A stretch of 64,000 nt of DNA. Origin: Thermodesulfobacteriota bacterium (lineage in GTDB: Bacteria > Desulfobacterota > Desulfarculia > JACQYL01). Positions within the stretch are counted from its first letter, which is position 1. Every line of letters starts with the position of its first letter. The stretch covers positions 3,968,001 to 4,032,000 of the forward strand of contig CAXXLZ010000002.1 in NCBI GenBank assembly GCA_963675595.2. The letters are read 5' to 3'. The translations under genes were made by a program, and so were the position numbers. Below, one piece after another: positions 1-48,709 of the stretch. The notes beneath the pieces were generated by a model, which saw only the letters and a list, made by a program, of their open reading frames with translations, did no database searches and was not told where the DNA came from.

Positions 1-46
1 TTCGGAGCTCTCGGATCGCGGGACGGGGGATCGAACTGAAAAAAGC

Positions 47-514
47 ATGCTGGGGATTGAAGGCAACTATCTTATTTTTTCCATGGCCGATCAGGAATAC
101 GGTGTCGGAATTCTGTCCGTCAGAGAAATTATTGGAATGATGTCCATTACTTCCATCCCGAGAGCGCCTTCATATGTCAAAGGAGTAATCAATCTCCGCG
201 GCCGCGTTATTCCAGTGGTGGATCTTCGACTTAAGTTCGGTCTCGAGCCCGTGGAATACGATGCGCGTACGTCCATCGTGGTGCTGGATATCCGGGGTCC
301 CAAGAGCATGTTTCAGGTGGGCATGATCGTCGACGCCGTTTCGGACGTATCCAACATTCGGGCGGAGGATACGGAAGAATCCCCTCGTTTTGGGCTGGGC
401 GGCAACACGAGCTACATCCTGTCCATGGCCAAAATGGAAGGGGGCGTCAAGGTATTGCTGGATGTGGACGTGCTTTTCGGGGGAATGGAATCGCTCGGCG
501 TGTCCGGCGCTTGA
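47..514 (+). CDS. cheW: Chemotaxis coupling protein CheW
   Basis: YLIFSMADQEYGVGILSVREII...IPRAPSYVKGVINLRGRVIPVVDLRLKF...VGMIVDAVSDV, classic CheW signature. Confidence 0.95.
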   Translation: MLGIEGNYLIFSMADQEYGVGILSVREIIGMMSITSIPRAPSYVKGVINLRGRVIPVVDLRLKFGLEPVEYDARTSIVVLDIRGPKSMFQVGMIVDAVSDVSNIRAEDTEESPRFGLGGNTSYILSMAKMEGGVKVLLDVDVLFGGMESLGVSGA

Positions 515-37431: not shown

Positions 37432-39861
37432 TTAATCGAAGCACGAGGAATCGTCTGCATCGCATCCCACGAAATCCAACTCCACATGGAAGTTTGAGCC
37501 TTTCCCCGGCTCGCTGTCCGCCCACATCTTTCCCCCGAGGAGTTGGGTCAGCCTCAGGGCGATACTGAGGCCGAGTCCCAGCCCGCCGAATTTCCGAGTA
37601 CTTGAGCCGTCGCCCTGGGTAAGTCCCCCAAAAATGAGCTTCAGATTTTCCCGGGAGATGCCGACACCGCTGTCCCTGATCTGAAAATGGAGTCGGACCT
37701 TGTTCTCATCCCGACTCGTGCAGCTCACGGAGATATCCACCGAACCTTTTTCCGTAAACTTCACTGCGTTATAGAGTAGTTTTTCGATCAGGACCGACAG
37801 CTTTTTGAGATCGCCCAGAAGAATGGGAGGAATGTCCGGGGATACCGACGTATTGATCGAGATGCCTTTGAGTCGGGCTTCGTGATCCACCCGGTGCGCC
37901 AACCCGGCAAGCACTGAATGAACGTCGAAAGGCTGTAACTGAACCCCTATCTTTCCGGCTTCCAGATGGCTTAACTCGATCAGGTCGTTGATCATATCGA
38001 GCAGCGAGTGAGCCGAGTCTTGGGCCAATTGGAGCAACTCTCGTTGGTCCGGGGTAAGCCGGGCTTCAAGAATCAGGTCGATCACGCCCATGACGTGGTT
38101 CATGGGAGTCCGAAATTCATGGCTGATGTTGGCCAAGAACTCATTCTTTGCTCGATTGGACGACTCAGCCGCGTCTTTGGCCCGAATGAGGGATTCTTCC
38201 GCTTCCTTTTTCAGAGTGACGTCTTCCGTGATTCCTGCGACTCGATAAGGCTGTCCCGATTCGCCCAATACGGGAAAAGCCCTATCCTGAATCCAACGGA
38301 TCGTGCCGTCCGGACGGCGGATTCGATAAGTTTCATCATACCTGCCCTCGACCTGAAGATTGACGGCCGATTCGCGCACCCGTTCCCGGTCCTCGGGCAC
38401 AACAGCGTCAAGCCAGGAAGCCGGATTCGCATACAGGCTGTCGACCGAACGGCCCCATATCCGTTCATAGGCGGGCGACACATAAATCGTCCGGTTATTT
38501 TTCAAACTCGTCAGCCAGAACACTTGCTCGATGTTTTCCGCAAGTTGGCGGAATCGCTCTTCACTTTCGCGCAGAGCCTTTTCAGACTCTTTGCGTGCGG
38601 TGATATCTTCGGCGAAACCTTCCAGGATGGTGGATTTTCCTTCCGAATCTCTGACGAACCTCAGTTGGAGCAGGGCGGACCAGACTTCTCCGTTTTTTCG
38701 GAGCAACTCCACCTCCGCGCTGTGGACTCCTTTCTTCTCCGAAATTCTTAGGATCATTTCCCGTCGTTGTTCAGGATCGTCATAAACCTGTTGGGCAATA
38801 TCCTTGATTTCGCTTATGACCTCCTCCGGCCCTGAGTAGCCCAGCATGGTTGCGAAGGCCGGGTTAACGTTAAGGAACTTTCCCTGAAGTGTTGTCTGGA
38901 ATATCCCCACGGCGCCGTATTCAAAGAGGGAGCGGTACTTCTCCTCGGATCGGCGGAGAGCCTCTTCGGCTCGTTTTCGTTCACTAATATCCCGATAGAC
39001 AAAAAAGAACGTGGTCTTTCCGCCCATATCCATCGATCGTGCGCTGATTTCCACCGGAACTTGTCGTCCATCGGGACGCAATACCAGAGTCTCCATCCGG
39101 GCAACTCGCCCGGTTCGGTTTTGGACGCGAAGGGGATCAAGAAATTCTCGTTGAATTCTCTCTCGTTCGTCCTCAGGATGGATTTCGGATTGATGTAAGC
39201 CTACGATATCGTCGTAGGAGCTCTCCAGGAGTTGAACGGCGGTGGGGTTGAGATGAAGGATGCTCAATGTGACCGGGTCCGTCAGGAAGAGGGCGTCGGG
39301 CGCTTCGTCGAAAACGGTACGGTATCGCCTTTCCGCTTCATACAATCGACGTTCGATTTGTGCGCGCTTCTTGATTTCGTTGACCAGTTGTTCGTTCGTC
39401 TTTTTCAGCTCGGCCGTGCGCTCTTCCACCCTCCGTTCCAGATTGGCGGACAGTTCACGATTTTCGGCCTGGAGTCTCTGTTTCTCCAGAGCACTTTCGA
39501 CCACGTTCAGGAGTTCGGTTTGTCCCGACAAAGGTTTGGTGAGGTAGTGGAAAGCACCGGCTTCCCTTAAACTGCTCACAGCTTCCTGAACACCGCCGAG
39601 TCCGGAAAGAACTATGAACTGGATGTCCGGGTCCAATTGCCGAATTTCCCGCATGAGCTCGAGACCGTTCATGCCCGGCATGACCAGGTCGGTGATCACC
39701 AAATGGAAGGAGTGGGAAGAGAACAAGTTCAGGGCCTGGAGGCCGTCGTCGGCGGTCTCCACTTCGAACCCTCGTTGAGAAAGTATGTTCCGTAAATACC
39801 TTCTCGGTTCGATCTCGTCGTCAATTACAAGGATTCGAGGGCGCAACGAGCACTTCCCCAT
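37432..39861 (-). CDS. Hybrid sensor histidine kinase (N-terminal receiver, 3 PAS domains, HisKA, HATPase)
   Basis: RILVIDDE...TDLVMPGMNG...YLTKP; three PAS/PAC repeats (DISERK, DITARK, DVTLKK); ISHEFRTPMN, NAVKFT, DSGVGI, GGLGLGLSI; no TM segment. Confidence 0.93.
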   Translation of the reverse strand: MGKCSLRPRILVIDDEIEPRRYLRNILSQRGFEVETADDGLQALNLFSSHSFHLVITDLVMPGMNGLELMREIRQLDPDIQFIVLSGLGGVQEAVSSLREAGAFHYLTKPLSGQTELLNVVESALEKQRLQAENRELSANLERRVEERTAELKKTNEQLVNEIKKRAQIERRLYEAERRYRTVFDEAPDALFLTDPVTLSILHLNPTAVQLLESSYDDIVGLHQSEIHPEDERERIQREFLDPLRVQNRTGRVARMETLVLRPDGRQVPVEISARSMDMGGKTTFFFVYRDISERKRAEEALRRSEEKYRSLFEYGAVGIFQTTLQGKFLNVNPAFATMLGYSGPEEVISEIKDIAQQVYDDPEQRREMILRISEKKGVHSAEVELLRKNGEVWSALLQLRFVRDSEGKSTILEGFAEDITARKESEKALRESEERFRQLAENIEQVFWLTSLKNNRTIYVSPAYERIWGRSVDSLYANPASWLDAVVPEDRERVRESAVNLQVEGRYDETYRIRRPDGTIRWIQDRAFPVLGESGQPYRVAGITEDVTLKKEAEESLIRAKDAAESSNRAKNEFLANISHEFRTPMNHVMGVIDLILEARLTPDQRELLQLAQDSAHSLLDMINDLIELSHLEAGKIGVQLQPFDVHSVLAGLAHRVDHEARLKGISINTSVSPDIPPILLGDLKKLSVLIEKLLYNAVKFTEKGSVDISVSCTSRDENKVRLHFQIRDSGVGISRENLKLIFGGLTQGDGSSTRKFGGLGLGLSIALRLTQLLGGKMWADSEPGKGSNFHVELDFVGCDADDSSCFD

Positions 39862-40238
39862 CGGTTTCCCCGACCCTTGGGGCAATGGTGGCGAAGCGCA
39901 TTACCCTAAGCGTGAGTCGCCGGGAAACCGACTCAATCTTGTTTAAGAGAATGTTACGATTGTATCCTTTCGTTTGATATGTTTCCAATCGTATTTGCCG
40001 GTTTTCCGTCGTGAACACCTTGGGTTACCGGCTCATTGATATCTGAACGCGCAAGACCGCATGTGCGGGCCCTTATGTAATCGATGGGCGTCCGTTACCG
40101 CTTCAATGGGATGTCCTTCGCGATTGAAGTGTCGGAACTTCGGGAGTCGACGAGAAGCATACTTGGATTCTTCGTGGACATCCGTCACGCTTGGCAGTAT
40201 ATTGATTGCACGATTTCCAAGGCAGGAGGTTTCAGACC

Positions 40239-40985: not shown

Positions 40986-41021
40986 AGCTTCTCTTATTTC
41001 CTTGAAAATACATGATTATTT

Positions 41022-41056
41022 GGGGACACCCCATCTCCGATGTGCGGGGTGTCCCC
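41022..41056. terminator. Stem-loop between convergent genes (probable terminator)
   Basis: GGGGACACCCC ... GGGGTGTCCCC perfect 11-bp inverted repeat. Confidence 0.55.
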
Positions 41057-41082
41057 GAGGTTTCCCCGGACCAAATCTCGTT

Positions 41083-41316
41083 CTAATCCGAACTTTTGCC
41101 TTCCTTGAATTCCCGGGCCGCATGTTTGGCTTCTTCCCAGATGTTGCGGCCCCGTTTCTTCAGAATCTTGTTGGCCTCGTCAACGGTGGAAGTGCAGATT
41201 TGATCGAGGGTCTTTTCGTCCGGGAGCGGTTTGCCCTCTTTTTGGAGTTTCCACCGGACCAGGGACTTGGCCGCCTGTTTCTGACCGGCGAAAAGCAGGT
41301 CCGAAAGCTTGCCCAT
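41083..41316 (-). CDS. Small hypothetical helical protein (77 aa)
   Basis: Strong RBS AAAGGAGGAG before ATG 41316; MGKLSDLLFAGQKQAAKSLVRWKLQKEG..., charged helical composition. Confidence 0.7.
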   Translation of the reverse strand: MGKLSDLLFAGQKQAAKSLVRWKLQKEGKPLPDEKTLDQICTSTVDEANKILKKRGRNIWEEAKHAAREFKEGKSSD

Positions 41317-41565
41317 AATGCTCCTCCTTTTCTTCGCCCGCATTGTATCGTTTCCGGGTTCCAAGATAAACCCGTCGGGTTCGCGTGAGCCTGTCGGCAC
41401 ATGTCGGGCAAGGGAGGCGGCGTCCGGTCTTTTCAATCGTCCAAGACGCGGGCGCTGGGACAAATGAATACGGGCCGACCCGATAAACCGTGCCGGTTGA
41501 CGGGCGGTCCCGTTTGCTTTACGTAATCAGGCATTGTGTGAAAGGAATTGGTAAAGACGACGAAC

Positions 41566-42342
41566 ATGGAACAATGGATCGACACACACGCCCATCTGGA
41601 CATGGAACCTTTCCTGGAGGATTTGGAACAGGTCATCGACAGAGCCCGGATGACGGGCGTCAAAGGAATCATTTCAGTGGGCTCGGATATTGCCTCAAGT
41701 AAAAGGGCCGTAAGCATCGCCGGACAATACGGTATGGTCAAAGCGGCAGTGGGAGTGCATCCTCATGAGGCCTGCAAGGGCGGCCGGACGGAAGAACTGG
41801 AACGCCTGCTGAAGGAGGCCGAGGTTCTGGCCGTCGGCGAGATGGGATTGGATTATTTCTACAACCATTCCGAGCGGGAGGAACAGCTTGAAGTGTTCCG
41901 GATGCAGGTGGAACTGGCCGGCGACGTCGGGAAACCAATCATCGTGCACGTGAGGGACGCTCATGACGACGCCGTGGAAATCCTCCGCGGCGCGGGGAAT
42001 GGGAAGGTGCGCGGAGTGATTCACTGTTTCACCGGCGGTCCCGAGGACCTGCACTCCTACCTGGAAATGGGATTCTATATTTCCTTCGCCGGTATCGTCA
42101 CATTCAAGAAGGCATCCGAGCTCCGCGATGCTGCGGCCATGGTCCCGATGGATCGCTTGCTCGTGGAAACGGATGCGCCTTACTTGGCTCCGGTTCCCAT
42201 GCGAGGCAAACGCAATGAGCCGGCGTTCGTGGTCCATACGGGAGCAGCCTTGGCGGAAGTGCTCGGCGTTTCCTCCGAGGAACTTGCGAGCCGAACTACG
42301 GCCAACGCGGATTCACTCTTCAAACCGGGGTCATGGGCGTGA
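41566..42342 (+). CDS. tatD: TatD-family deoxyribonuclease
   Basis: IDTHAHLD, AVGVHPH, AVGEMGLDY, IVHVRDA, VIHCFTG, LVETDAPYLAPVPMRGKRNEP. Confidence 0.95.
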   Translation: MEQWIDTHAHLDMEPFLEDLEQVIDRARMTGVKGIISVGSDIASSKRAVSIAGQYGMVKAAVGVHPHEACKGGRTEELERLLKEAEVLAVGEMGLDYFYNHSEREEQLEVFRMQVELAGDVGKPIIVHVRDAHDDAVEILRGAGNGKVRGVIHCFTGGPEDLHSYLEMGFYISFAGIVTFKKASELRDAAAMVPMDRLLVETDAPYLAPVPMRGKRNEPAFVVHTGAALAEVLGVSSEELASRTTANADSLFKPGSWA

Positions 42343-42947
42343 GATCGGAGCCTCTTTTCGTCCTGGCTTCCGGCTCACCCCGGCGCAAAGAGCTCTTGGC
42401 GCGCATGGGCTTCGATTTTGAAGTGCACCCCGCCGAATGCGATGAGAGACCGCGTTCCGGAGAACCTGCGGAGGACTACGCAAGGCGGATGGCCAAGGAA
42501 AAGGCGGAAGCGGTTACTTCGCTTCTGCCTTCTCGCTGGGTGTTGGCCGCGGACACCGTGGTGGTGGTGGACGGTGCGATCCTCGGAAAACCCGGAGACG
42601 AGAATGAAGCGGCGGCCATGATCGCGACGCTGGCGGGAAAGACTCACTCGGTAATCACTTCCTACTGCTGGTCTCATGGACGCCGTGGAACGGTTCGCGT
42701 GTGTTCCGTGAAGAGCCTTGTAGAGTTCAAGCCCTTGGATTCGGGCGAAATAGGACGCTATGTGGATACCGGCGAACCCATGGACAAAGCCGGCGCTTAC
42801 GCGGTGCAGGGTCTGGGGGCATTCATGGTAAGGGCGGTCCACGGCTCCTACAGCAATGTCGTTGGTCTGCCTTTGTGCGAGGTGATCGACACTATGGTGG
42901 AACTGGGCGTCATACCCGAGTTCCCTGTTTCTTTCGATCGGAAATAG
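42333..42947 (+). CDS. maf: Maf-family nucleoside triphosphate pyrophosphatase
   Basis: LASGSPRRKELL, AADTVV, ILGKP, EPMDKAGAYAVQG, GSYSNVVGLP. Confidence 0.96.
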   Translation: MGVRSEPLFVLASGSPRRKELLARMGFDFEVHPAECDERPRSGEPAEDYARRMAKEKAEAVTSLLPSRWVLAADTVVVVDGAILGKPGDENEAAAMIATLAGKTHSVITSYCWSHGRRGTVRVCSVKSLVEFKPLDSGEIGRYVDTGEPMDKAGAYAVQGLGAFMVRAVHGSYSNVVGLPLCEVIDTMVELGVIPEFPVSFDRK

Positions 42948-43019
42948 AGCCTTTTCGGCCCCCCCGACTTTTGCCGATTTCGAGTAACCCTCGGCCGGGC
43001 GGCGGGGCTTGGAGTGTGC

Positions 43020-43712
43020 ATGTCTTCCATCGCGGACAACCTGCGGCTAGTGATGGACCGGATCGCGAGAGCCGCTTCAAAATCCGGACGCGCGCCCGAG
43101 GCGGTCCGACTTGTGGCAGTGAGTAAGACCGTTTCTCCCGAGCGGATTCAAGAGGCCGTGAACGCCGGGGTCCAAATACTGGGGGAGAACTATCTACAAG
43201 AAGCCCAGGAGAAAATGCCGAAGGTGTCCGGTCCCGTATGCTGGCATTTCATCGGACATCTTCAGTCCAGGAAGGCCAAAGACGTGGTTCGCGATTTTGA
43301 TCTGATTCATTCGGTGGACAGCGTCAAACTCGCTCGCGAAATCGACCGGCGGGCCGAGGCTCTCGGTAAGACCATGGATATCCTGGTTCAGGTCAACGTG
43401 TCCGGAGAGGAATCCAAGTTCGGCTTGGACCCTGAGGATATCGAACCCTTCCTGGACCAAGCCCGGGGGCTGGAGCACGTTGTGATATCGGGTCTAATGA
43501 CCATGCCGCCCTTTTTCGACCAGCCCGATCGTGTCCGGCCGTATTTCGCGAAATTAAGGGAACTTTCTCGGCGAGCGGCGGACCGTAACCGGGAGGGCAA
43601 CATCCGCCTCACGGAGCTGTCCATGGGGATGAGCGGTGACTTTGAAGCCGCTGTTGAAGAAGGAGCCACATTGGTTCGAGTGGGAACCCTGTTGTTCGGC
43701 TCCAGAACCTGA
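43020..43712 (+). CDS. yggS: PLP homeostasis protein YggS
   Basis: LVAVSKT, GENYLQE, WHFIGHLQS, IHSVDS, GLMTMPP, LSMGMSGDF, ATLVRVGT. Confidence 0.96.
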   Translation: MSSIADNLRLVMDRIARAASKSGRAPEAVRLVAVSKTVSPERIQEAVNAGVQILGENYLQEAQEKMPKVSGPVCWHFIGHLQSRKAKDVVRDFDLIHSVDSVKLAREIDRRAEALGKTMDILVQVNVSGEESKFGLDPEDIEPFLDQARGLEHVVISGLMTMPPFFDQPDRVRPYFAKLRELSRRAADRNREGNIRLTELSMGMSGDFEAAVEEGATLVRVGTLLFGSRT

Positions 43713-43733
43713 CATGGATATCGAGCACCAACC

Positions 43734-46700
43734 ATGACGAACAAACGAGAGCTTAGGGCGTATCTCCTATCTCACGGGGATATCCCCGACGATTTGGTTG
43801 ACGAGCACCTGTCTCGATTGGGCGCTCGTTACTTCGAGAGATTTACTGAAGTCGAGATTCGGAGCCATTTGTTGGGGTTATCCGATCTGACTCCGGACAA
43901 ACCGGGTGAAGTCCTGGTAAGGCGTCTCGGGGACGGCAGGACGGACTGCACGGTGCTCGGATTTGATTATCCTCACCTTTTCTCTCTCCTGACCGGCATC
44001 CTGGCGGCGCTGGGCTTTAATATACTGATCGGAGACGTGTTCACCTACCTGCCGGCGGCATCGCATCCTTCTCCTTCACAACGTGGCCCCCAGCGGAGAA
44101 GGCTTTCTCCGGATCCTTTGAAACGGCGTCGCATCGTGGATTATTTTTCCGGAGAGGCGGCGTCCTCCGTGCCCTTTGAAGTCTGGTCGGATCAGCTTTC
44201 CGGAACCGTGGTGGAGGTGCTGAAGCTGTTGGAGGCGGGAGACGACGACTCCGCGGCACGAGCCAAGCGGACGGTCAACGAGATGGTGGTCCGGATGTTG
44301 GCCGGTCGAAAATTCAGTTCGAAGCCTATTCTGTATCCCGTACAGATCGACATCGACAACAGCGATCCGGCGGTGACTTCCTTGAAAGTGATTTCGCAGG
44401 ATACCGTGGCATTTCTCTATACCTTGTCGAGCGCGCTTTCCCTTCATCGGATTTCCATCGAAAGCGTACGGATACGGACTCTCGAAGGTCGAGTGGAGGA
44501 CGAAATCGACTTCGTGGATTCTCGAGGTGATAAAATCGAGGATCCTGGAATTCTCAGCCAGATCCAACTTTCCGTGGTGCTCACCAAGCAGTTCACCTAT
44601 TTCCTGGAATCCGCTCCCGATCCTTACGCCGCTCTTAGCCGTTTCGGCCGCCTGGCTGAAGAGGTGCTCCTCATGTCCAAAGAAGGACAATGGGTCCAGC
44701 TGCTGTCCAATCCAACGATCCTGAAAGAGCTGGCAAGGCTGCTGGGAGCGAGCGATTATCTCTGGGAAGATTTCATTCGACGCCACTACGAAGTGGTCTT
44801 GCCCATGTTGGAGCAGGATGGGAAGGATCAGGATTTCAGTACTCCGGCCGAGCTGCTCGGACGCAGTATGGATGAGGCTCTACGGGGTGCGATTGAGCCG
44901 GCGGAACAGCGACGCCGACTGAATGAATTCAAGGATCGAGAGATCTTTCTGATCGACCTCGATCATATCAGGGGAAGGCTGGACTACCGTTCTTTCGCCG
45001 AAAAGCTGACCGTGTTGGCGGAACAGGTCATCGGCACCGCCGCACGCCTCGCCTATGGGCATTTGGCCCGACGGCACGGCATTCCGAGAACTGTCGGAGG
45101 CATGGAGGCCCAATTTTCCGTCCTCGGTTTGGGAAAGCTCGGAGGGGCCGCTCTGGGATATGCGTCGGACGTGGAATTGTTGTTCGTTTACAGCGACAAC
45201 GGGGCCACGGATGGAGAGTCCCCTCTCGATAATGCCGAGTTCTTTGATCGATTGGCCAAGGGGGTGGTTCAAATCATCGAGGCCAAGCAACAAGGAATTT
45301 TTCACATCGACCTCCGACTCCGACCTTACGGGAACCAGAGCCCTTTGGCCTGCAGCCTGGAGAATTTCTATCGCTATTACGTCAAAGACGGGCCGGCCCA
45401 CTCCTATGAGCGATTGGCCCTGGTACGCCTACGGACCGTGGCGGGCAACGCGGCGCTGGGGGCGCGAGTGGAACGCTTGCGTGACGAGATCGTCTACAGT
45501 TCGGCCGCCATCGACTTCGATGAACTTCGTGAGTTGAGGAAGAAGCAATTCGAGAGCAAAAGCTCCGGGGAACAGCTTAACGCGAAGTTTTGCCCGGGCG
45601 GATTGGTGGATTTGGAGTATGACGTACAGATGCTTCAAGTCATGTACGGCGGAGGAGTGTCCGAACTGCGAACTCCAAGAGTTCACCAAGCGTTGCTGGT
45701 CCTCGCGGACTTGGAGATTTTGGCCCCCCAGGAGGCCAAAGGGTTGATCGAGGCGTATGGATTCCTTCGGGAACTGATCAACGGTCTGCGGATGCTTCGC
45801 GGGTCCGCCGAAGACTTGCTGCTTCCCCCCACGGACTCACAGGAATTCGCACACCTTGCCCGGCGAATGGGTTATCGCCGAGGCGGCGCCTTGGATGCCG
45901 CCGAAGAGCTTCGTCTGGACTTTGAAACCCACACGGCCGCGGTGCGAGCGTTCGCTGAGAAGCATTTCGGTCGGGATTCCTTGCCTCGTCCCCACGCGGG
46001 GAGCGTTGCGGATCTCGTGCTTTCGGCCGATCCCGCCGAGGAACTTCGAAACCGGGTTCTTACGGAAGCCGGTTTCTCCAATCCCGGTCGGGCTTACGTG
46101 AATTTGCGAAGCTTGGCGGGAGAGGGAGGCAGCCGAAAGAACGCGTTCGCTCGCTTGGCCGTGCTGGCCGTAGACATTTTGCGAAACACTCCGGATCCGG
46201 ACATGGCTCTCAATAACCTCGAGCGTTATATCCGTATTGTGGCCAGTGCCGAATCTCGTTTCAATACGTTGTTGTCGCAACCCATGCGTCTTGAAATCCT
46301 CCTGGGAATCTTTTCCGCGAGTCAGTTCTTGGCGGATACCGTAATCCGGCATCCGGGGTTCATGGACTGGGTCACCGTGCCGGAGAACCTTTACGAAACC
46401 CGAAAACGCAATGAAATGGAGGAGGAACTTCGCTCCTTTACTTTGAGCGGCGCGGGCCGAAAAGAATGGCTTAAGGAGGTTCGGCGGTTCCGAAGGAGAG
46501 AGATTCTGCGTATCGGGACGAGAGATATGGTCCTCGGCGTGGTGACTCCGGTGGTCACTCACGAACTTTCCATTCTCGCAGAAGCCCTGGTAAAGGAGTG
46601 CCTCTCCTGGATATGGAGGGAAACCGCAGAGGAAGCCGGCAGGGCAGATGACTTGTGTGTGCTGGAGAACCGTCTGTGCATTGTGGCCATGGGAAAACTG

Positions 46701-47522
46701 GGTGGGGACGAGCTGAATTATAGTTCGGATATTGATCTGATCGCCTTCTTTGATGATTCCACCGGAATCGGACCCAACGACAAGAAGCTGTACTCCGGAG
46801 TGGTTGAACGTCTGAGAGCCGACCTCTCGGACCATACTGAGGAAGGCTACGCCTATCGGGTGGATTTTCGGTTAAGGCCCTATGGGAGGGCCGGTGAACT
46901 GGTGCCGTCGCTCTCCAGCTTGGTGGACTACTATCTCAACAAAGCATCGGCATGGGAGGTGCAAGCCCTTCTAAAGGCCCGTCCCGTGGCCGGCAATGCC
47001 GCACTCGGAGAAGACCTGATGGCTAGGCTTAAACCGGTTCTTCTCCAGGAGAGGAACCGGGAGTCCGTAGTGGGTTCCATCGAAAAAATGCGGCGGGCCG
47101 CCATAAAGCAATCGGCGGGCTTCATGGGAGGAGGCATCGACGTCAAGACCGCCGCCGGAGGAATTCGGGATATCGAGTTCCTGGTCCAGGGGCTGCAACT
47201 GCTGTACGCTTCGGAAAGGCCCGGCATTCTCACCGGGAACACGCTTCGAGGACTCGACGCCTTGGTGGACGCCGGGTTGTTGCCCCCTGAACAGGGGGCC
47301 CGTCTTGAAGGCGGTTATGTGTTTCTCAGAAGGGTCGAACACTGTCTTCAAATTATGGAAGATCTTCAGGTCCATGACGTACCGAATGAGCGGGAAGCAT
47401 TGGAACCCCTGGCAAAAAGAGTCTTGGGCAAAGATTGCACGGCGGAGGCTTTCCTGGAAACATTGCACGCCTGTATGGAAGAAGTCCGGGAATCCTATAT
47501 TGAAATCTTGGTGGAGGGATGA
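43734..47522 (+). CDS. glnE: Glutamine synthetase adenylyltransferase/removase (GlnE family) with N-terminal ACT domains
   Basis: Two NTase modules: GKLGGAALGYASDVELLF...IDLRLRPYG and MGKLGGDELNYSSDIDLI...YRVDFRLRPYG; about 290-aa N-terminal extension with two ACT-like repeats. Confidence 0.9.
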   Translation: MTNKRELRAYLLSHGDIPDDLVDEHLSRLGARYFERFTEVEIRSHLLGLSDLTPDKPGEVLVRRLGDGRTDCTVLGFDYPHLFSLLTGILAALGFNILIGDVFTYLPAASHPSPSQRGPQRRRLSPDPLKRRRIVDYFSGEAASSVPFEVWSDQLSGTVVEVLKLLEAGDDDSAARAKRTVNEMVVRMLAGRKFSSKPILYPVQIDIDNSDPAVTSLKVISQDTVAFLYTLSSALSLHRISIESVRIRTLEGRVEDEIDFVDSRGDKIEDPGILSQIQLSVVLTKQFTYFLESAPDPYAALSRFGRLAEEVLLMSKEGQWVQLLSNPTILKELARLLGASDYLWEDFIRRHYEVVLPMLEQDGKDQDFSTPAELLGRSMDEALRGAIEPAEQRRRLNEFKDREIFLIDLDHIRGRLDYRSFAEKLTVLAEQVIGTAARLAYGHLARRHGIPRTVGGMEAQFSVLGLGKLGGAALGYASDVELLFVYSDNGATDGESPLDNAEFFDRLAKGVVQIIEAKQQGIFHIDLRLRPYGNQSPLACSLENFYRYYVKDGPAHSYERLALVRLRTVAGNAALGARVERLRDEIVYSSAAIDFDELRELRKKQFESKSSGEQLNAKFCPGGLVDLEYDVQMLQVMYGGGVSELRTPRVHQALLVLADLEILAPQEAKGLIEAYGFLRELINGLRMLRGSAEDLLLPPTDSQEFAHLARRMGYRRGGALDAAEELRLDFETHTAAVRAFAEKHFGRDSLPRPHAGSVADLVLSADPAEELRNRVLTEAGFSNPGRAYVNLRSLAGEGGSRKNAFARLAVLAVDILRNTPDPDMALNNLERYIRIVASAESRFNTLLSQPMRLEILLGIFSASQFLADTVIRHPGFMDWVTVPENLYETRKRNEMEEELRSFTLSGAGRKEWLKEVRRFRRREILRIGTRDMVLGVVTPVVTHELSILAEALVKECLSWIWRETAEEAGRADDLCVLENRLCIVAMGKLGGDELNYSSDIDLIAFFDDSTGIGPNDKKLYSGVVERLRADLSDHTEEGYAYRVDFRLRPYGRAGELVPSLSSLVDYYLNKASAWEVQALLKARPVAGNAALGEDLMARLKPVLLQERNRESVVGSIEKMRRAAIKQSAGFMGGGIDVKTAAGGIRDIEFLVQGLQLLYASERPGILTGNTLRGLDALVDAGLLPPEQGARLEGGYVFLRRVEHCLQIMEDLQVHDVPNEREALEPLAKRVLGKDCTAEAFLETLHACMEEVRESYIEILVEG

Positions 47523-47595
47523 CGTGCGGCCGAGAATCTCCCGCCCCGGTGTGGTTTGAGCCTTTCAGGAGTCCGTGAGACGCCGGGAACCGGCG

Positions 47596-48399
47596 TCATT
47601 CCCCTTGTTCCCTTTCGCTGTAAAGAGTGTCGTACAGCAGTTCCGCCATATCCACGATCCTGGGTCCCGTCCTACACGTGAGATTGCAGGGGAACTGGTG
47701 AACCTTTCCCGACTCCACCGCCCGGAGGCGGTTCCAAAGGGGATGGGAGAGGATCATGTCGAGAAACCGCTTGTCCGTGCCGCAGAAGAAGAACATTTCC
47801 GGATTCAATTCGGCGAAGCGTTGGAAGGAGATGCGGGGATACGCTTCCGTGGTCCCGCCGGTGACGTTTCGTCCGCCTCCTCGGGTAATCACGTCGTACT
47901 GAAAAGATCCCGGACCTGCAACGATCAGCTCTTCACCGTCCCATTCCAGCACCCGGGCCACAGTGGTGCGCTTTTCGGGCGGGATTCGGCTTACCTTTCC
48001 ATCCAGTACCGAAAGCCTCGATCGAAGCCCTGCGATGAGCCGTTCGATGTCCTTTTCGGCTTCGAGGAGTCTTGCCGTGTGCTTCATATCCTCGAAAACC
48101 TCATCCATGGTACGGGAATCGTAAAGTACGACCCGGACGCCCCTGCGCTCCAGTTGGGGCGATAGTCGGGAATGAGCGCGTTTCAGACCGAACACCAGAT
48201 TGGCGCCGAGTTCTATTATCTTGTCGATATCCGGATCAAACCAGGAAGCCACATGAGGTTTTTCGGCGACGTTCGCCGGGAAATCGCAGCTGTCCGTGAC
48301 GCCCACGAGAACTTCATCCAGGCCGAGGGCATACAGAGTCTCCGTGATGGAGGGTGTCAATGAGACGATTCTGGTATTCTTGAGCGGGCTTCGCGGCAT
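47596..48399 (-). CDS. BtuF-like (helical-backbone metal receptor) substrate-binding protein
   Basis: RIVSLTPSITETLYALG, VGVTDSCDFP, PDIDKII, LRAVESGKV, GPRIVD; no signal peptide. Confidence 0.85.
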   Translation of the reverse strand: MPRSPLKNTRIVSLTPSITETLYALGLDEVLVGVTDSCDFPANVAEKPHVASWFDPDIDKIIELGANLVFGLKRAHSRLSPQLERRGVRVVLYDSRTMDEVFEDMKHTARLLEAEKDIERLIAGLRSRLSVLDGKVSRIPPEKRTTVARVLEWDGEELIVAGPGSFQYDVITRGGGRNVTGGTTEAYPRISFQRFAELNPEMFFFCGTDKRFLDMILSHPLWNRLRAVESGKVHQFPCNLTCRTGPRIVDMAELLYDTLYSEREQGE

Positions 48400-48709
48400 G
48401 ATCTGGTCCCGATGCTTCAAGTAAGAAATGAACGCTTGGCAGCCCCGCTTGACTCTCGGAGGCGATGTGGACTCTTTGGACTATTCCCGGGCACGGGAAA
48501 ACCGAGCGGGTTGCGGCGCCATGCACCGCATGGTTCGCCGATGAGTGTCTCACATCGGGGCTTTATTTGGAAGATTTTTTGTTAAGGATGGGCCGGGCTA
48601 TTTGCCCAATCAATGGAATGGCGAGTGTGGTTCAACGGGGTTGTCTATGGGCGAAGCGGTGACCCGCAGCCTTCGCGCGGGAGCATAAGAGTTGAATTCA
48701 CGAGCTTAT

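Follow-up and report, generated by a model that had tools for sequence, protein, structure and literature searches.

Identification of the GlnE Gene

The window, that is, the whole stretch of DNA analyzed here, comprises 64,000 nucleotides of contig CAXXLZ010000002.1 (positions 3,968,001 to 4,032,000) from a Thermodesulfobacteriota bacterium. On its forward strand it contains an open reading frame (ORF) of 1262 residues which, to judge from its sequence, encodes GlnE, the enzyme of glutamine synthetase (GS) adenylylation and de-adenylylation. The first ~295 residues of this protein are homologous to the C-terminal region of GlnD and consist of a helical linker and two ACT domains; the protein and its relatives are therefore named ACT-GlnE, and their features in the window are collected in Table 1. 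A sequence-only reading of this DNA, made without database searches, had proposed a GlnE with about 290 extra N-terminal residues in the form of the GlnD-type linker and tandem ACT domains. Both the extension and its kinship were borne out by the searches described below, and the three peptides quoted in that reading were located at residues 25-46, 70-104 and 215-271 of the translation.

Pfam analysis of the 1262-residue protein gave 343.1 bits in two stretches for PF03710 and 138.3 bits in two stretches for PF08335, each nucleotidyltransferase domain being followed by a helical domain as is characteristic of GlnE. Among the NCBIfam models, the GlnE equivalog NF008292 scored 660.2 bits against a cut-off of 487 and aligned with residues 327-1165, and the other two GlnE equivalogs remained below their cut-offs (475.5 versus 625 and 408.9 versus 724 bits). 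The catalytic motif G-K-x-G-G ... S-D-x-[DE] was found in both halves, as GKLGGAALGYASDVEL in the first, where the second carboxylate is Glu, and as GKLGGDELNYSSDIDL in the second. A scan of the source genome (G000) gave a single GlnE match, and a second PF03710 gene was absent from all five other ACT-GlnE genomes checked. The start codon is backed by the ORFs of 16 relatives that open at the equivalent site, 13 with MKP and three with MAKP, MSKP or MKS, and for this reason the extra N-terminus is considered real. What appears to set the protein apart from the GlnE pattern is the order of its halves, since the adenylyl-removing (AR) half followed by the adenylyl-transferase (AT) half was not recovered in the trees; this is a difference of arrangement and not of content.

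Table 1. Features of the ACT-GlnE gene and its upstream neighbor in the window.
Feature	Residues	Positions	Strand	Evidence or remark
ACT-GlnE, whole ORF	1262 in total	43734..47522	+	Pfam, NCBIfam; GlnE-family gene, the only one found in the source genome
Helical segment, R-L-x3-Y-F...H pattern	1-51	43734..43886	+	hhalign from query position 12; model helices 4-50; TIGR01693 from residue 5
ACT1	58-168	43905..44237	+	Alignment, model, structure search, hhalign
ACT1 beta2-beta3 hairpin insert; variable, basic, predicted disordered	105-132	44046..44129	+	Predicted local distance difference test (pLDDT) <50 at residues 111-124
Extra helix between ACT1 and ACT2	171-190	44244..44303	+	Model; mostly unaligned to GlnD
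ACT2	204-293	44343..44612	+	Sub-threshold Pfam ACT, alignment, model, structure search, hhalign
First nucleotidyltransferase half and helical domain	~301-755	44634..45998	+	ACT partner in both architectures; groups with the canonical C-terminal (AT) half, inferred from trees
First-half catalytic motif GKLGGAALGYASDVEL (D-x-E)		45132..45179	+	Motif scan
Junction, equivalent to mid-type N-terminus (residues 10-120)	~759-857	46008..46304	+	BLASTP E 6.5e-10 (P0229), 1.7e-8 (P0258)
Second nucleotidyltransferase half and helical domain	858-1262	46305..47519	+	Groups with the canonical N-terminal (AR) half
Second-half catalytic motif GKLGGDELNYSSDIDL (D-x-D)	987-1002	46692..46739	+	Motif scan
YggS-type protein binding pyridoxal phosphate, upstream neighbor		43014..43712	+	Context only; glnE starts 21 nt past its stop codon

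The N-Terminal Module Is Homologous to the C-Terminus of GlnD

The GlnD model TIGR01693 aligned residues 5-270 of the protein to its positions 604-835 of 850, with an E-value of 7e-20 for the whole protein. When 17 ACT-GlnE N-termini were compared with 12 GlnD C-termini by hhalign, the probability was 99.7% and the E-value 3.5e-26 over 231 aligned columns, and the match spanned the helical linker (R-Y...H), ACT1 and ACT2. Residues 1-51 are homologous to the GlnD linker that precedes ACT1 (L-P-x-R-Y-L...H). Module and GlnD share, besides R-Y...H, the loop Asp, a D-N...T pattern before ACT2 and G-x-K-I after it. Among 401 genomes scanned from the window's phylum, the module matched outside its own family only GlnD C-termini, with both ACT1 and ACT2, in ORFs of ~850-950 residues. 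Mean column identity among the 17 aligned modules was 61%. The protein is not itself a GlnD, as it reaches only 70.8 bits with TIGR01693 against the cut-off of 519.4 and gives no HD-domain match; in addition, the module is C-terminal in GlnD and N-terminal or internal in ACT-GlnE. A recent copy of the ACT domains of the organism's own GlnD was ruled out, since BLASTP found only 35% identity over 40 residues, and the fusion must therefore be old.

The fold of the module was predicted with AlphaFold2 from the 17-row alignment (pLDDT 85.2; predicted template modeling score, pTM, 0.84). The model contains two beta-alpha-beta-beta-alpha units, with four helices within residues 4-50 ahead of ACT1. 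ACT1 is built of strand 70-77, helix 82-92, strand 96-104, the insert, strand 133-141 and helix 148-168, and ACT2 of strands 204-208, 215-222, 240-250 and 253-262 with helices 227-237 and 271-293. The top Foldseek matches all bear ACT domains, namely L-GDH180 (E 7e-6, in its ACT-like N-terminal region), SerB2 and aspartate kinase. A structure search independent of Foldseek returned aspartate kinase 3l76_B (Z 11.4, root-mean-square deviation 3.4 over 150 residues, span 25..290), the IlvA regulatory domain 9d2s_A (Z 8.4), CASTOR2 (Z 7.1) and plant or single ACT-like domains (Z 6.5-6.7, deviation 2.1). The module profile run against the sequences of solved structures gave an unrelated protein as best match (E 0.05). 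On the predicted model, the two ACT domains of the module pack into a single unit, the ancestry of which lies in GlnD. Both checks that the sequence-only reading had named for the N-terminus, a comparison with GlnD models and a structure prediction, returned the expected kinship and the expected fold, respectively, with Pfam's own ACT model staying under its threshold. A longer prediction of residues 1-745 reached a pLDDT of 81.8 and a pTM of 0.69, with 58-69 pLDDT at the junction of module and first half (residues 300-370). The complex prediction of the module with residues 301-745, run without controls, scored 0.00, a value that speaks neither for nor against their contact.

Several observations weigh against a sensor working just as that of GlnD. 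The Pfam ACT model (PF01842, cut-off 27) reached 17.9 bits with the whole protein and 22.9 bits with the N-terminus alone, its match lying at residues 217-277; some relatives pass the cut-off, and the mid-type proteins described below stand at 27.1-29.7 bits. The D-R-x-G-L motif, which all 12 GlnD proteins have in each of their two ACT domains, is replaced in the module by FDYPxxF and [EQ]DTPAFLY. In the window protein the loops read FDYPHLF in ACT1, where GlnD has D-R-x-G-L-F, and QDTVAFLY in ACT2, where GlnD has D-R-x-G-L-L-Y. The loop Gly is lost from both ACT domains and the loop Asp is kept. Ligand sites of ACT domains usually involve this glycine of the beta1-alpha1 loop, and the ligand of the module could differ from glutamine or be absent.

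We consider it rather improbable that the module senses another amino acid, 2-oxoglutarate or a nucleotide. Such a ligand would suit the replacement of D-R-x-G-L in both domains, as well as the basic ACT1 insert of 26-28 residues and the extra helix, neither of which has a counterpart in GlnD; the insert falls in a gap of the GlnD profile and in variable columns of the module alignment. The ACT pairs of the top structural matches bind Lys/Thr, Ile/Val, Arg or Ser, and canonical GlnE already responds to glutamine through its C-terminal part, so that a second input would add information. However, the closest relatives of the module by sequence are exclusively GlnD C-termini, and this type of ACT domain has been linked to glutamine (PMC11190351, PMC12702975); the conserved pairing of ACT-glnE with glnA would also fit product sensing. 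In Chlamydomonas alpha-amylase 2 (AMA2), which bears an ACT domain of the GlnD type, glycine exchanges are reported to have left the glutamine effect in place (PMC11190351). By analogy, glutamine is the favored ligand of the module.

Two Architectures Related by Circular Permutation

Besides relatives with the architecture of the window protein (N-type), the searches recovered proteins of ~1170-1260 residues in which the module is central (mid-type; P0229, P0258, P0259, P0263, P0264 and P0270, with fragments P0246, P0247 and P0257). They come from metagenome-assembled genomes labeled Calditrichota and Anaerolineae, and the order given by Pfam analysis of the nine was GlnE plus PF08335, then ACT or ACR9-like ACT, then GlnE plus PF08335. 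The half that follows the module in mid-type proteins matched the first half of the window protein with 231-317 bits, the other pairing giving 90-127 bits, and the first mid-type half matched the second half of the window protein. In the trees, the ACT-adjacent halves of both architectures formed one clade (100/100). Since the junction of the window protein (residues ~759-870) aligns with residues 10-120 of the mid-type proteins, it represents the permutation seam. The N-type (ACT-X-Y) and mid-type (Y-ACT-X) proteins are thus circular permutations of each other.

The catalytic motifs follow the same pattern. The half after the module has D-x-E in 66 of 66 N-type proteins (LGYASD-x-E) and in 6 of 6 mid-type proteins ([LI]G[FY][AG]SD-x-E), versus none of 38 canonical halves, and residues G467, K468, D479 and E481 were invariant in alignment A3. 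The other half carries LN-x-SSD[IV]D (66/66 N-type, 6/6 mid-type). Canonical proteins have LN[FY]-x-SD[IV]D in the N-terminal half (19/19) and Y-x-SDLD in the C-terminal half (19/19). The ACT module and the D-x-E half are a conserved cassette in both architectures.

This constancy bears on the possibility that the module is mainly a device for docking or assembly, which would anchor the enzyme on the GS dodecamer or on PII, or oligomerize it, and would bind no metabolite. A loop without its glycine would be expected there, the disordered basic insert could be a contact loop, and the top Foldseek match is to the ACT-like N-terminal region of L-GDH180. Moreover, the plant protein ACR11, made of GlnD-like ACT repeats, is reported to bind plastid GS and ferredoxin-dependent glutamate synthase in vitro, with its link to GS disputed within the same paper (PMC12702975). 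However, the module always stands beside the same half in two permuted architectures, which argues for intramolecular coupling and not for a free tether, and its conservation extends over the whole ACT cores. Docking as the main role is accordingly very improbable in our view, and a sensor acting in cis on the neighboring half is preferred.

Probable Assignment of the AT and AR Halves

In canonical GlnE the N-terminal half is adenylyl-removing and the C-terminal half adenylyl-transferase (10.64898/2026.09.02.748916). A tree of 78 separate halves under LG+G4, from which L150 was left out as only one of its motifs was matched, split the canonical N-terminal, N-type second and mid-type first halves from the rest with a support of 98 in the Shimodaira-Hasegawa-like approximate likelihood ratio test (SH-aLRT). 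The same split was obtained under LG+C20+F+G4 with 56 rows and 422 columns (ultrafast bootstrap and SH-aLRT 100/100). Under this site-heterogeneous model, the approximately unbiased (AU) test rejected the collinear order (delta lnL 36.45, p 0.0086) and also the grouping of the canonical halves together (delta lnL 34.76, p 0.00087). In addition, the second half of the window protein, taken alone, aligned to the N-terminal (AR) half of all three GlnE equivalogs with 261, 275 and 226 bits. It is therefore quite probable from these sequence comparisons that the window protein has the order ACT-AT-AR and the mid-type proteins AR-ACT-AT, the latter being collinear with canonical GlnE. It is also inferred from the trees that, where canonical GlnE has its central regulatory region, these proteins have the module.

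The opposite assignment, with no permutation relative to canonical GlnE, would make the first half AR and the second AT; in that case de-adenylylation would be under the control of the module, and it would be the mid-type proteins that are permuted. Several results agree with it and weigh against the order proposed above. The whole protein is collinear with NF008292 (residues 327-1165 to positions 27-873), and the first half alone aligned to the N-terminal half of two NCBIfam GlnE models and to the C-terminal half of one. By phmmer, both halves are slightly nearer to E. coli AT-N (1v4a) than to AT-C (3k7d), the first half with 136 and 126 bits, respectively. With the 78 rows and LG+G4, the collinear order survived the AU test (delta lnL 2.17, p 0.46), and the groupings submitted to the AU tests were defined with the first tree already in view. 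The AT and AR roles are given provisionally, from phylogeny. Against the unpermuted order stand the support of 98 and 100/100 for the other arrangement, its rejection under the site-heterogeneous model, the presence of the canonical AR-type motif LN[FY]SSD[IV]D in the second half (66/66, versus 19/19 canonical N-terminal halves) and the higher scores with which this half fits the AR half of the three models. Under the ACT-AT-AR assignment, moreover, the mid-type order is simply that of canonical GlnE. For these reasons the unpermuted order is regarded as quite improbable, and ACT-AT-AR is used in what follows.

Distribution of the Family

A word-indexed search with residues 1-300 yielded 321 proteins at E<=1e-3 among 8000 candidates scored. 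The 120 listed of these 321 all contained PF03710 and PF08335, and nearly all had 1250-1320 residues, five being shorter (897-1199). In species-representative genomes, at least 558 of at least 590 pattern matches encode an ACT-GlnE relative. Titles among the matches listed name Deltaproteobacteria/Thermodesulfobacteriota (Desulfobacterales, Desulfatiglandales), Verrucomicrobiota, Lentisphaerota, Planctomycetota, Spirochaetales, Firestonebacteria and FCPU426. When the profile was searched against 1.84 billion cluster representatives, 250 proteins matched at E<=1e-30, 808 at E<=1e-10 and 2706 at E<=1e-3. The names that relatives bear in the databases are generic, such as "glutamate-ammonia-ligase adenylyltransferase" or "ACT domain-containing protein".

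In the 401-genome sample, ACT-GlnE was present in 19 genomes, the source genome included, versus 153 with canonical GlnE. Both other genomes of the source genome's family carry it, and the rest of the order and class sample gave 0 of 18. A tree of the core with the module removed separated 23 ACT-GlnE from 20 canonical proteins by one long branch (SH-aLRT 100); L054, L087 and L099, where the wrong long ORF of the locus had been taken and no BLAST match to GlnE was found, were left out of it. All these results indicate that ACT-GlnE is a widespread and distinct clade, not a one-off chimera.

Some further proteins were observed in these searches. P0122, P0128, P0133 and other profile matches of 160-340 residues consist of the module alone, and are either stand-alone GlnD-like ACT proteins or fragments from contig ends. 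P0186 (997 residues) has a dihydroneopterin aldolase (FolB) domain at residues 17-118 followed by the ACT module and a GlnE half, and could be either a genuine fusion or the product of a gene call that ran on. Canonical GlnE or GlnD matches were also seen in frames of ~1365-1660 residues (G021:C1:3588003-3590474, G227, G136, G333 and G197; G256, G332 and G132), which could be fusions or result from long stop-free stretches upstream. Finally, GlnE, GlnD and the module were not found in any of the 12 sampled genomes (92-100% complete) of f2, a sister family in the window's class, where the whole GS-modification layer seems to be missing.

Genomic Context and the GlnD-PII Cascade

Ahead of glnE, the window has on the same strand a gpmA-like gene, tatD, maf and yggS. 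No nitrogen gene adjoins glnE in the window, a point that does not favor a nitrogen sensor. A promoter and terminator scan of positions 41000-48600 gave counts equal to those of shuffled sequences. On the reverse strand, at 37432-39885 and some 4 kb upstream of glnE, lies a gene for an 817-residue hybrid sensor with a receiver, several PAS domains, HisKA and HATPase_c, without evident link to glnE.

The situation in related loci is different from that of the window. Among 80 such loci (71 informative), 46 have a same-strand glnA whose end lies fewer than 700 nt upstream of ACT-glnE, which ties the family firmly to GS. The same 80 loci include PII in 12, amtB in 10 and glnD in 7; in these 7 and in family f47, glnD lies within a few kb of ACT-glnE. 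In some lineages amtB, PII, glnD, glnA and ACT-glnE form one row within ~10 kb, as a compact island for nitrogen sensing (G045:C1, G083:C25 and G241:C52; L038, L044, L050, L062 and L095).

Elsewhere in the source genome, the complete cascade is encoded. It has an amtB-glnK-glnD row with a full glnD (642.6 bits versus the cut-off of 519.4), two PII proteins with a Tyr51 T-loop, that of the row reading GRQKGHKEIYRGAEY, and a type I GS (GS-I; TIGR00653, 680.3 bits) with the adenylylation tyrosine loop LDKDIYDLPPEE (DKDIYDLPPEE). An adenylylation tyrosine loop is present in the GS-I of G000, G141, G180 and G232. Two adjacent further PII-family genes (G000:C1:1528162-1528897; L118 and L119; 75 and 73 bits) lack the GlnB/K T-loop pattern; we take them to be possibly NifI-like. 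A second GS-like gene (G000:C2:360197-361537; L121) scores 274.8 bits versus a GlnA type I cut-off of 429 and has no Y-[DEN]-L-P loop.

With a presence threshold of E<=1e-60, and leaving out two genomes whose only GlnE matches had E-values of ~1e-4, glnD was found in 13 of 19 ACT-GlnE genomes versus 149 of 153 canonical-GlnE genomes, that is, it was not found in 6 and 4, respectively. Three of the six are nearly or fully complete: G180 (98%) and, both in family f56, G141 (100%) and G232 (96%). Others are less reliable, since the G117 contig stops where its kin have glnD, and G269 and G371 are only 78 and 85% complete. PF08335 matches were confined to ACT-glnE in the five glnD-less genomes re-checked (G141, G180, G232, G117 and G371). 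G141 and G232 showed only a PII-like ORF of 23-27 bits without the GlnB/K T-loop, and in both glnA lies directly beside ACT-glnE. This weak ORF of the f56 genomes (L125, 1035-2877; L126, 1029-1821) has 112-113 residues and overlaps the end of an ORF of ~150 residues; in G232 it is followed by a gene for a 349-residue membrane protein, and may belong to a different PII-like signaling unit. Coming from few, related and partly incomplete genomes, the excess of glnD-less carriers is a lead and not a statistic, which weakens any argument built on it.

The sequence-only reading had suggested a one-component switch that reads glutamine directly and possibly bypasses the GlnD-PII cascade, and had asked whether genomes with this architecture lack glnD. 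For the source genome, with its amtB-glnK-glnD row, second Tyr51-type PII and two further PII genes, GS modification independent of GlnD and PII seems unlikely. Most carriers likewise retain glnD, and its position close to ACT-glnE in f47 and in the seven loci suggests joint action. The suggestion fares better for a minority: the three carriers of 96-100% completeness without glnD, the confinement of PF08335 to ACT-glnE and the poor PII complement of f56 all speak for it, as does the location of the module at the site of the canonical central regulatory region. Furthermore, a GlnE independent of PII and GlnD is reported for Streptomyces coelicolor (10.64898/2026.09.02.748916), and the presence of glnD is no proof that GlnE responds to GlnD. 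A few lineages thus seem to run GS modification on ACT-GlnE alone, with the cascade retained in the source genome and in most carriers.

Relationship to Known Systems

ACT-GlnE resembles canonical GlnE (E. coli, Herbaspirillum seropedicae; NF008292; 1v4a, 3k7d) in its two nucleotidyltransferase halves each with PF08335, in passing an equivalog cut-off, in the presence of the GS-I tyrosine substrate and in being the sole GlnE of the genome. It differs by ~300 extra residues forming the GlnD-type ACT pair, by its separate core clade, by D-x-E instead of D-x-D in one half and by apparently swapped halves. Nothing in ACT-GlnE corresponds to the first ~100 residues of the canonical central region, in whose place the module stands. 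With GlnD, the linker, ACT1 and ACT2 are homologous; ACT-GlnE differs by the replaced D-R-x-G-L loops, the ACT1 basic insert and the extra helix.

The statement of the sequence-only reading that canonical GlnE is steered through PII proved inexact, since direct glutamine sensing is reported for the C-terminal part of canonical GlnE, and is cited for E. coli as well (10.64898/2026.09.02.748916). The same source describes a GlnE independent of PII and GlnD in S. coelicolor and one insensitive to uridylylated PII (PII-UMP) and to glutamine in Rhodospirillum rubrum, so that this regulation can be uncoupled. As described there, both enzymes have the canonical architecture, an ACT module being unmentioned in the available portion of the text.

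GlnD-type ACT domains are known in other settings. In AMA2, such a domain precedes an unrelated catalytic domain and the enzyme is activated by glutamine; AMA2 differs in being eukaryotic, in having one ACT domain per chain and in being a different enzyme (PMC11190351). The plant proteins ACR11 and ACR12 contain GlnD-like ACT repeats tied to the cycle of GS and glutamate synthase (PMC3173338, PMC12702975), and the Pfam model for ACR9-like ACT domains matches mid-type modules. Both ACR proteins differ in standing alone, without a catalytic domain, and their interaction with GS is disputed (PMC12702975).

A literature search limited to openly accessible articles found no description of a GlnE with an ACT domain, and none of a permuted GlnE among the matches listed. 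Nor are such forms mentioned in the available portion of a recent GlnE preprint (10.64898/2026.09.02.748916). The elements added by this analysis are the distinct clade, the cassette of ACT module and D-x-E half, the circular permutation, the linkage to glnA and the minority of carriers without glnD and PII. The clade and the permuted order of the halves go beyond what the sequence-only reading had observed.

Proposed Mechanism and Significance

The reading we favor, with a probability of about 0.55, is that the GlnD-type ACT pair of ACT-GlnE acts as a sensor in cis beside the AT half of a permuted enzyme. This reading is proposed because GlnD-type ACT domains are linked to glutamine and AMA2 provides a precedent, because the glutamine-responsive site of canonical GlnE lies in its central-plus-AT portion and GlnE-PII wiring varies among bacteria (10.64898/2026.09.02.748916), and because the cassette stays intact through the permutation, the glnA-glnE pairing is conserved and glnD and GlnB/K are occasionally lost. 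The ACT pair would bind a small molecule, most likely glutamine as in GlnD. Under nitrogen abundance, the pair would raise the activity of the AT half beside it or alter the balance between AT and AR, and the tyrosine in the DKDIYDLPPEE loop of GS-I would in this way become adenylylated. In the source genome, ACT-GlnE probably acts alongside GlnK/GlnB and GlnD, all of which are present. In the lineages without glnD, one family of which also lacks GlnB/K, the module may be the sole nitrogen input to GS modification.

A stronger form of this mechanism, possible but doubtful, is a self-contained glutamine-gated GS switch. In it, the ACT pair would have replaced the PII-binding central region and would gate the AT half, GlnD and GlnB/K would be dispensable (as in f56), and the ACT-AT cassette would have been kept through the permutation.

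The series GlnD-PII-GlnE-GS is a textbook model of signal integration. With ACT-GlnE it can be asked directly which of the halves responds to nitrogen status and in what manner, and its carriers are a natural experiment on whether GS modification can operate without GlnD and PII. It also provides a clear example of circular permutation in a large enzyme with two activities. The group occurs widely in uncultured anaerobes, for which models of nitrogen regulation are copied from E. coli, and its generic database names mask the difference. If true, the self-contained switch would add a third way of wiring the GS cascade, one that extends over Thermodesulfobacteriota, the Planctomycetes-Verrucomicrobia-Chlamydiae (PVC) group, Spirochaetota, Calditrichota and Chloroflexota.

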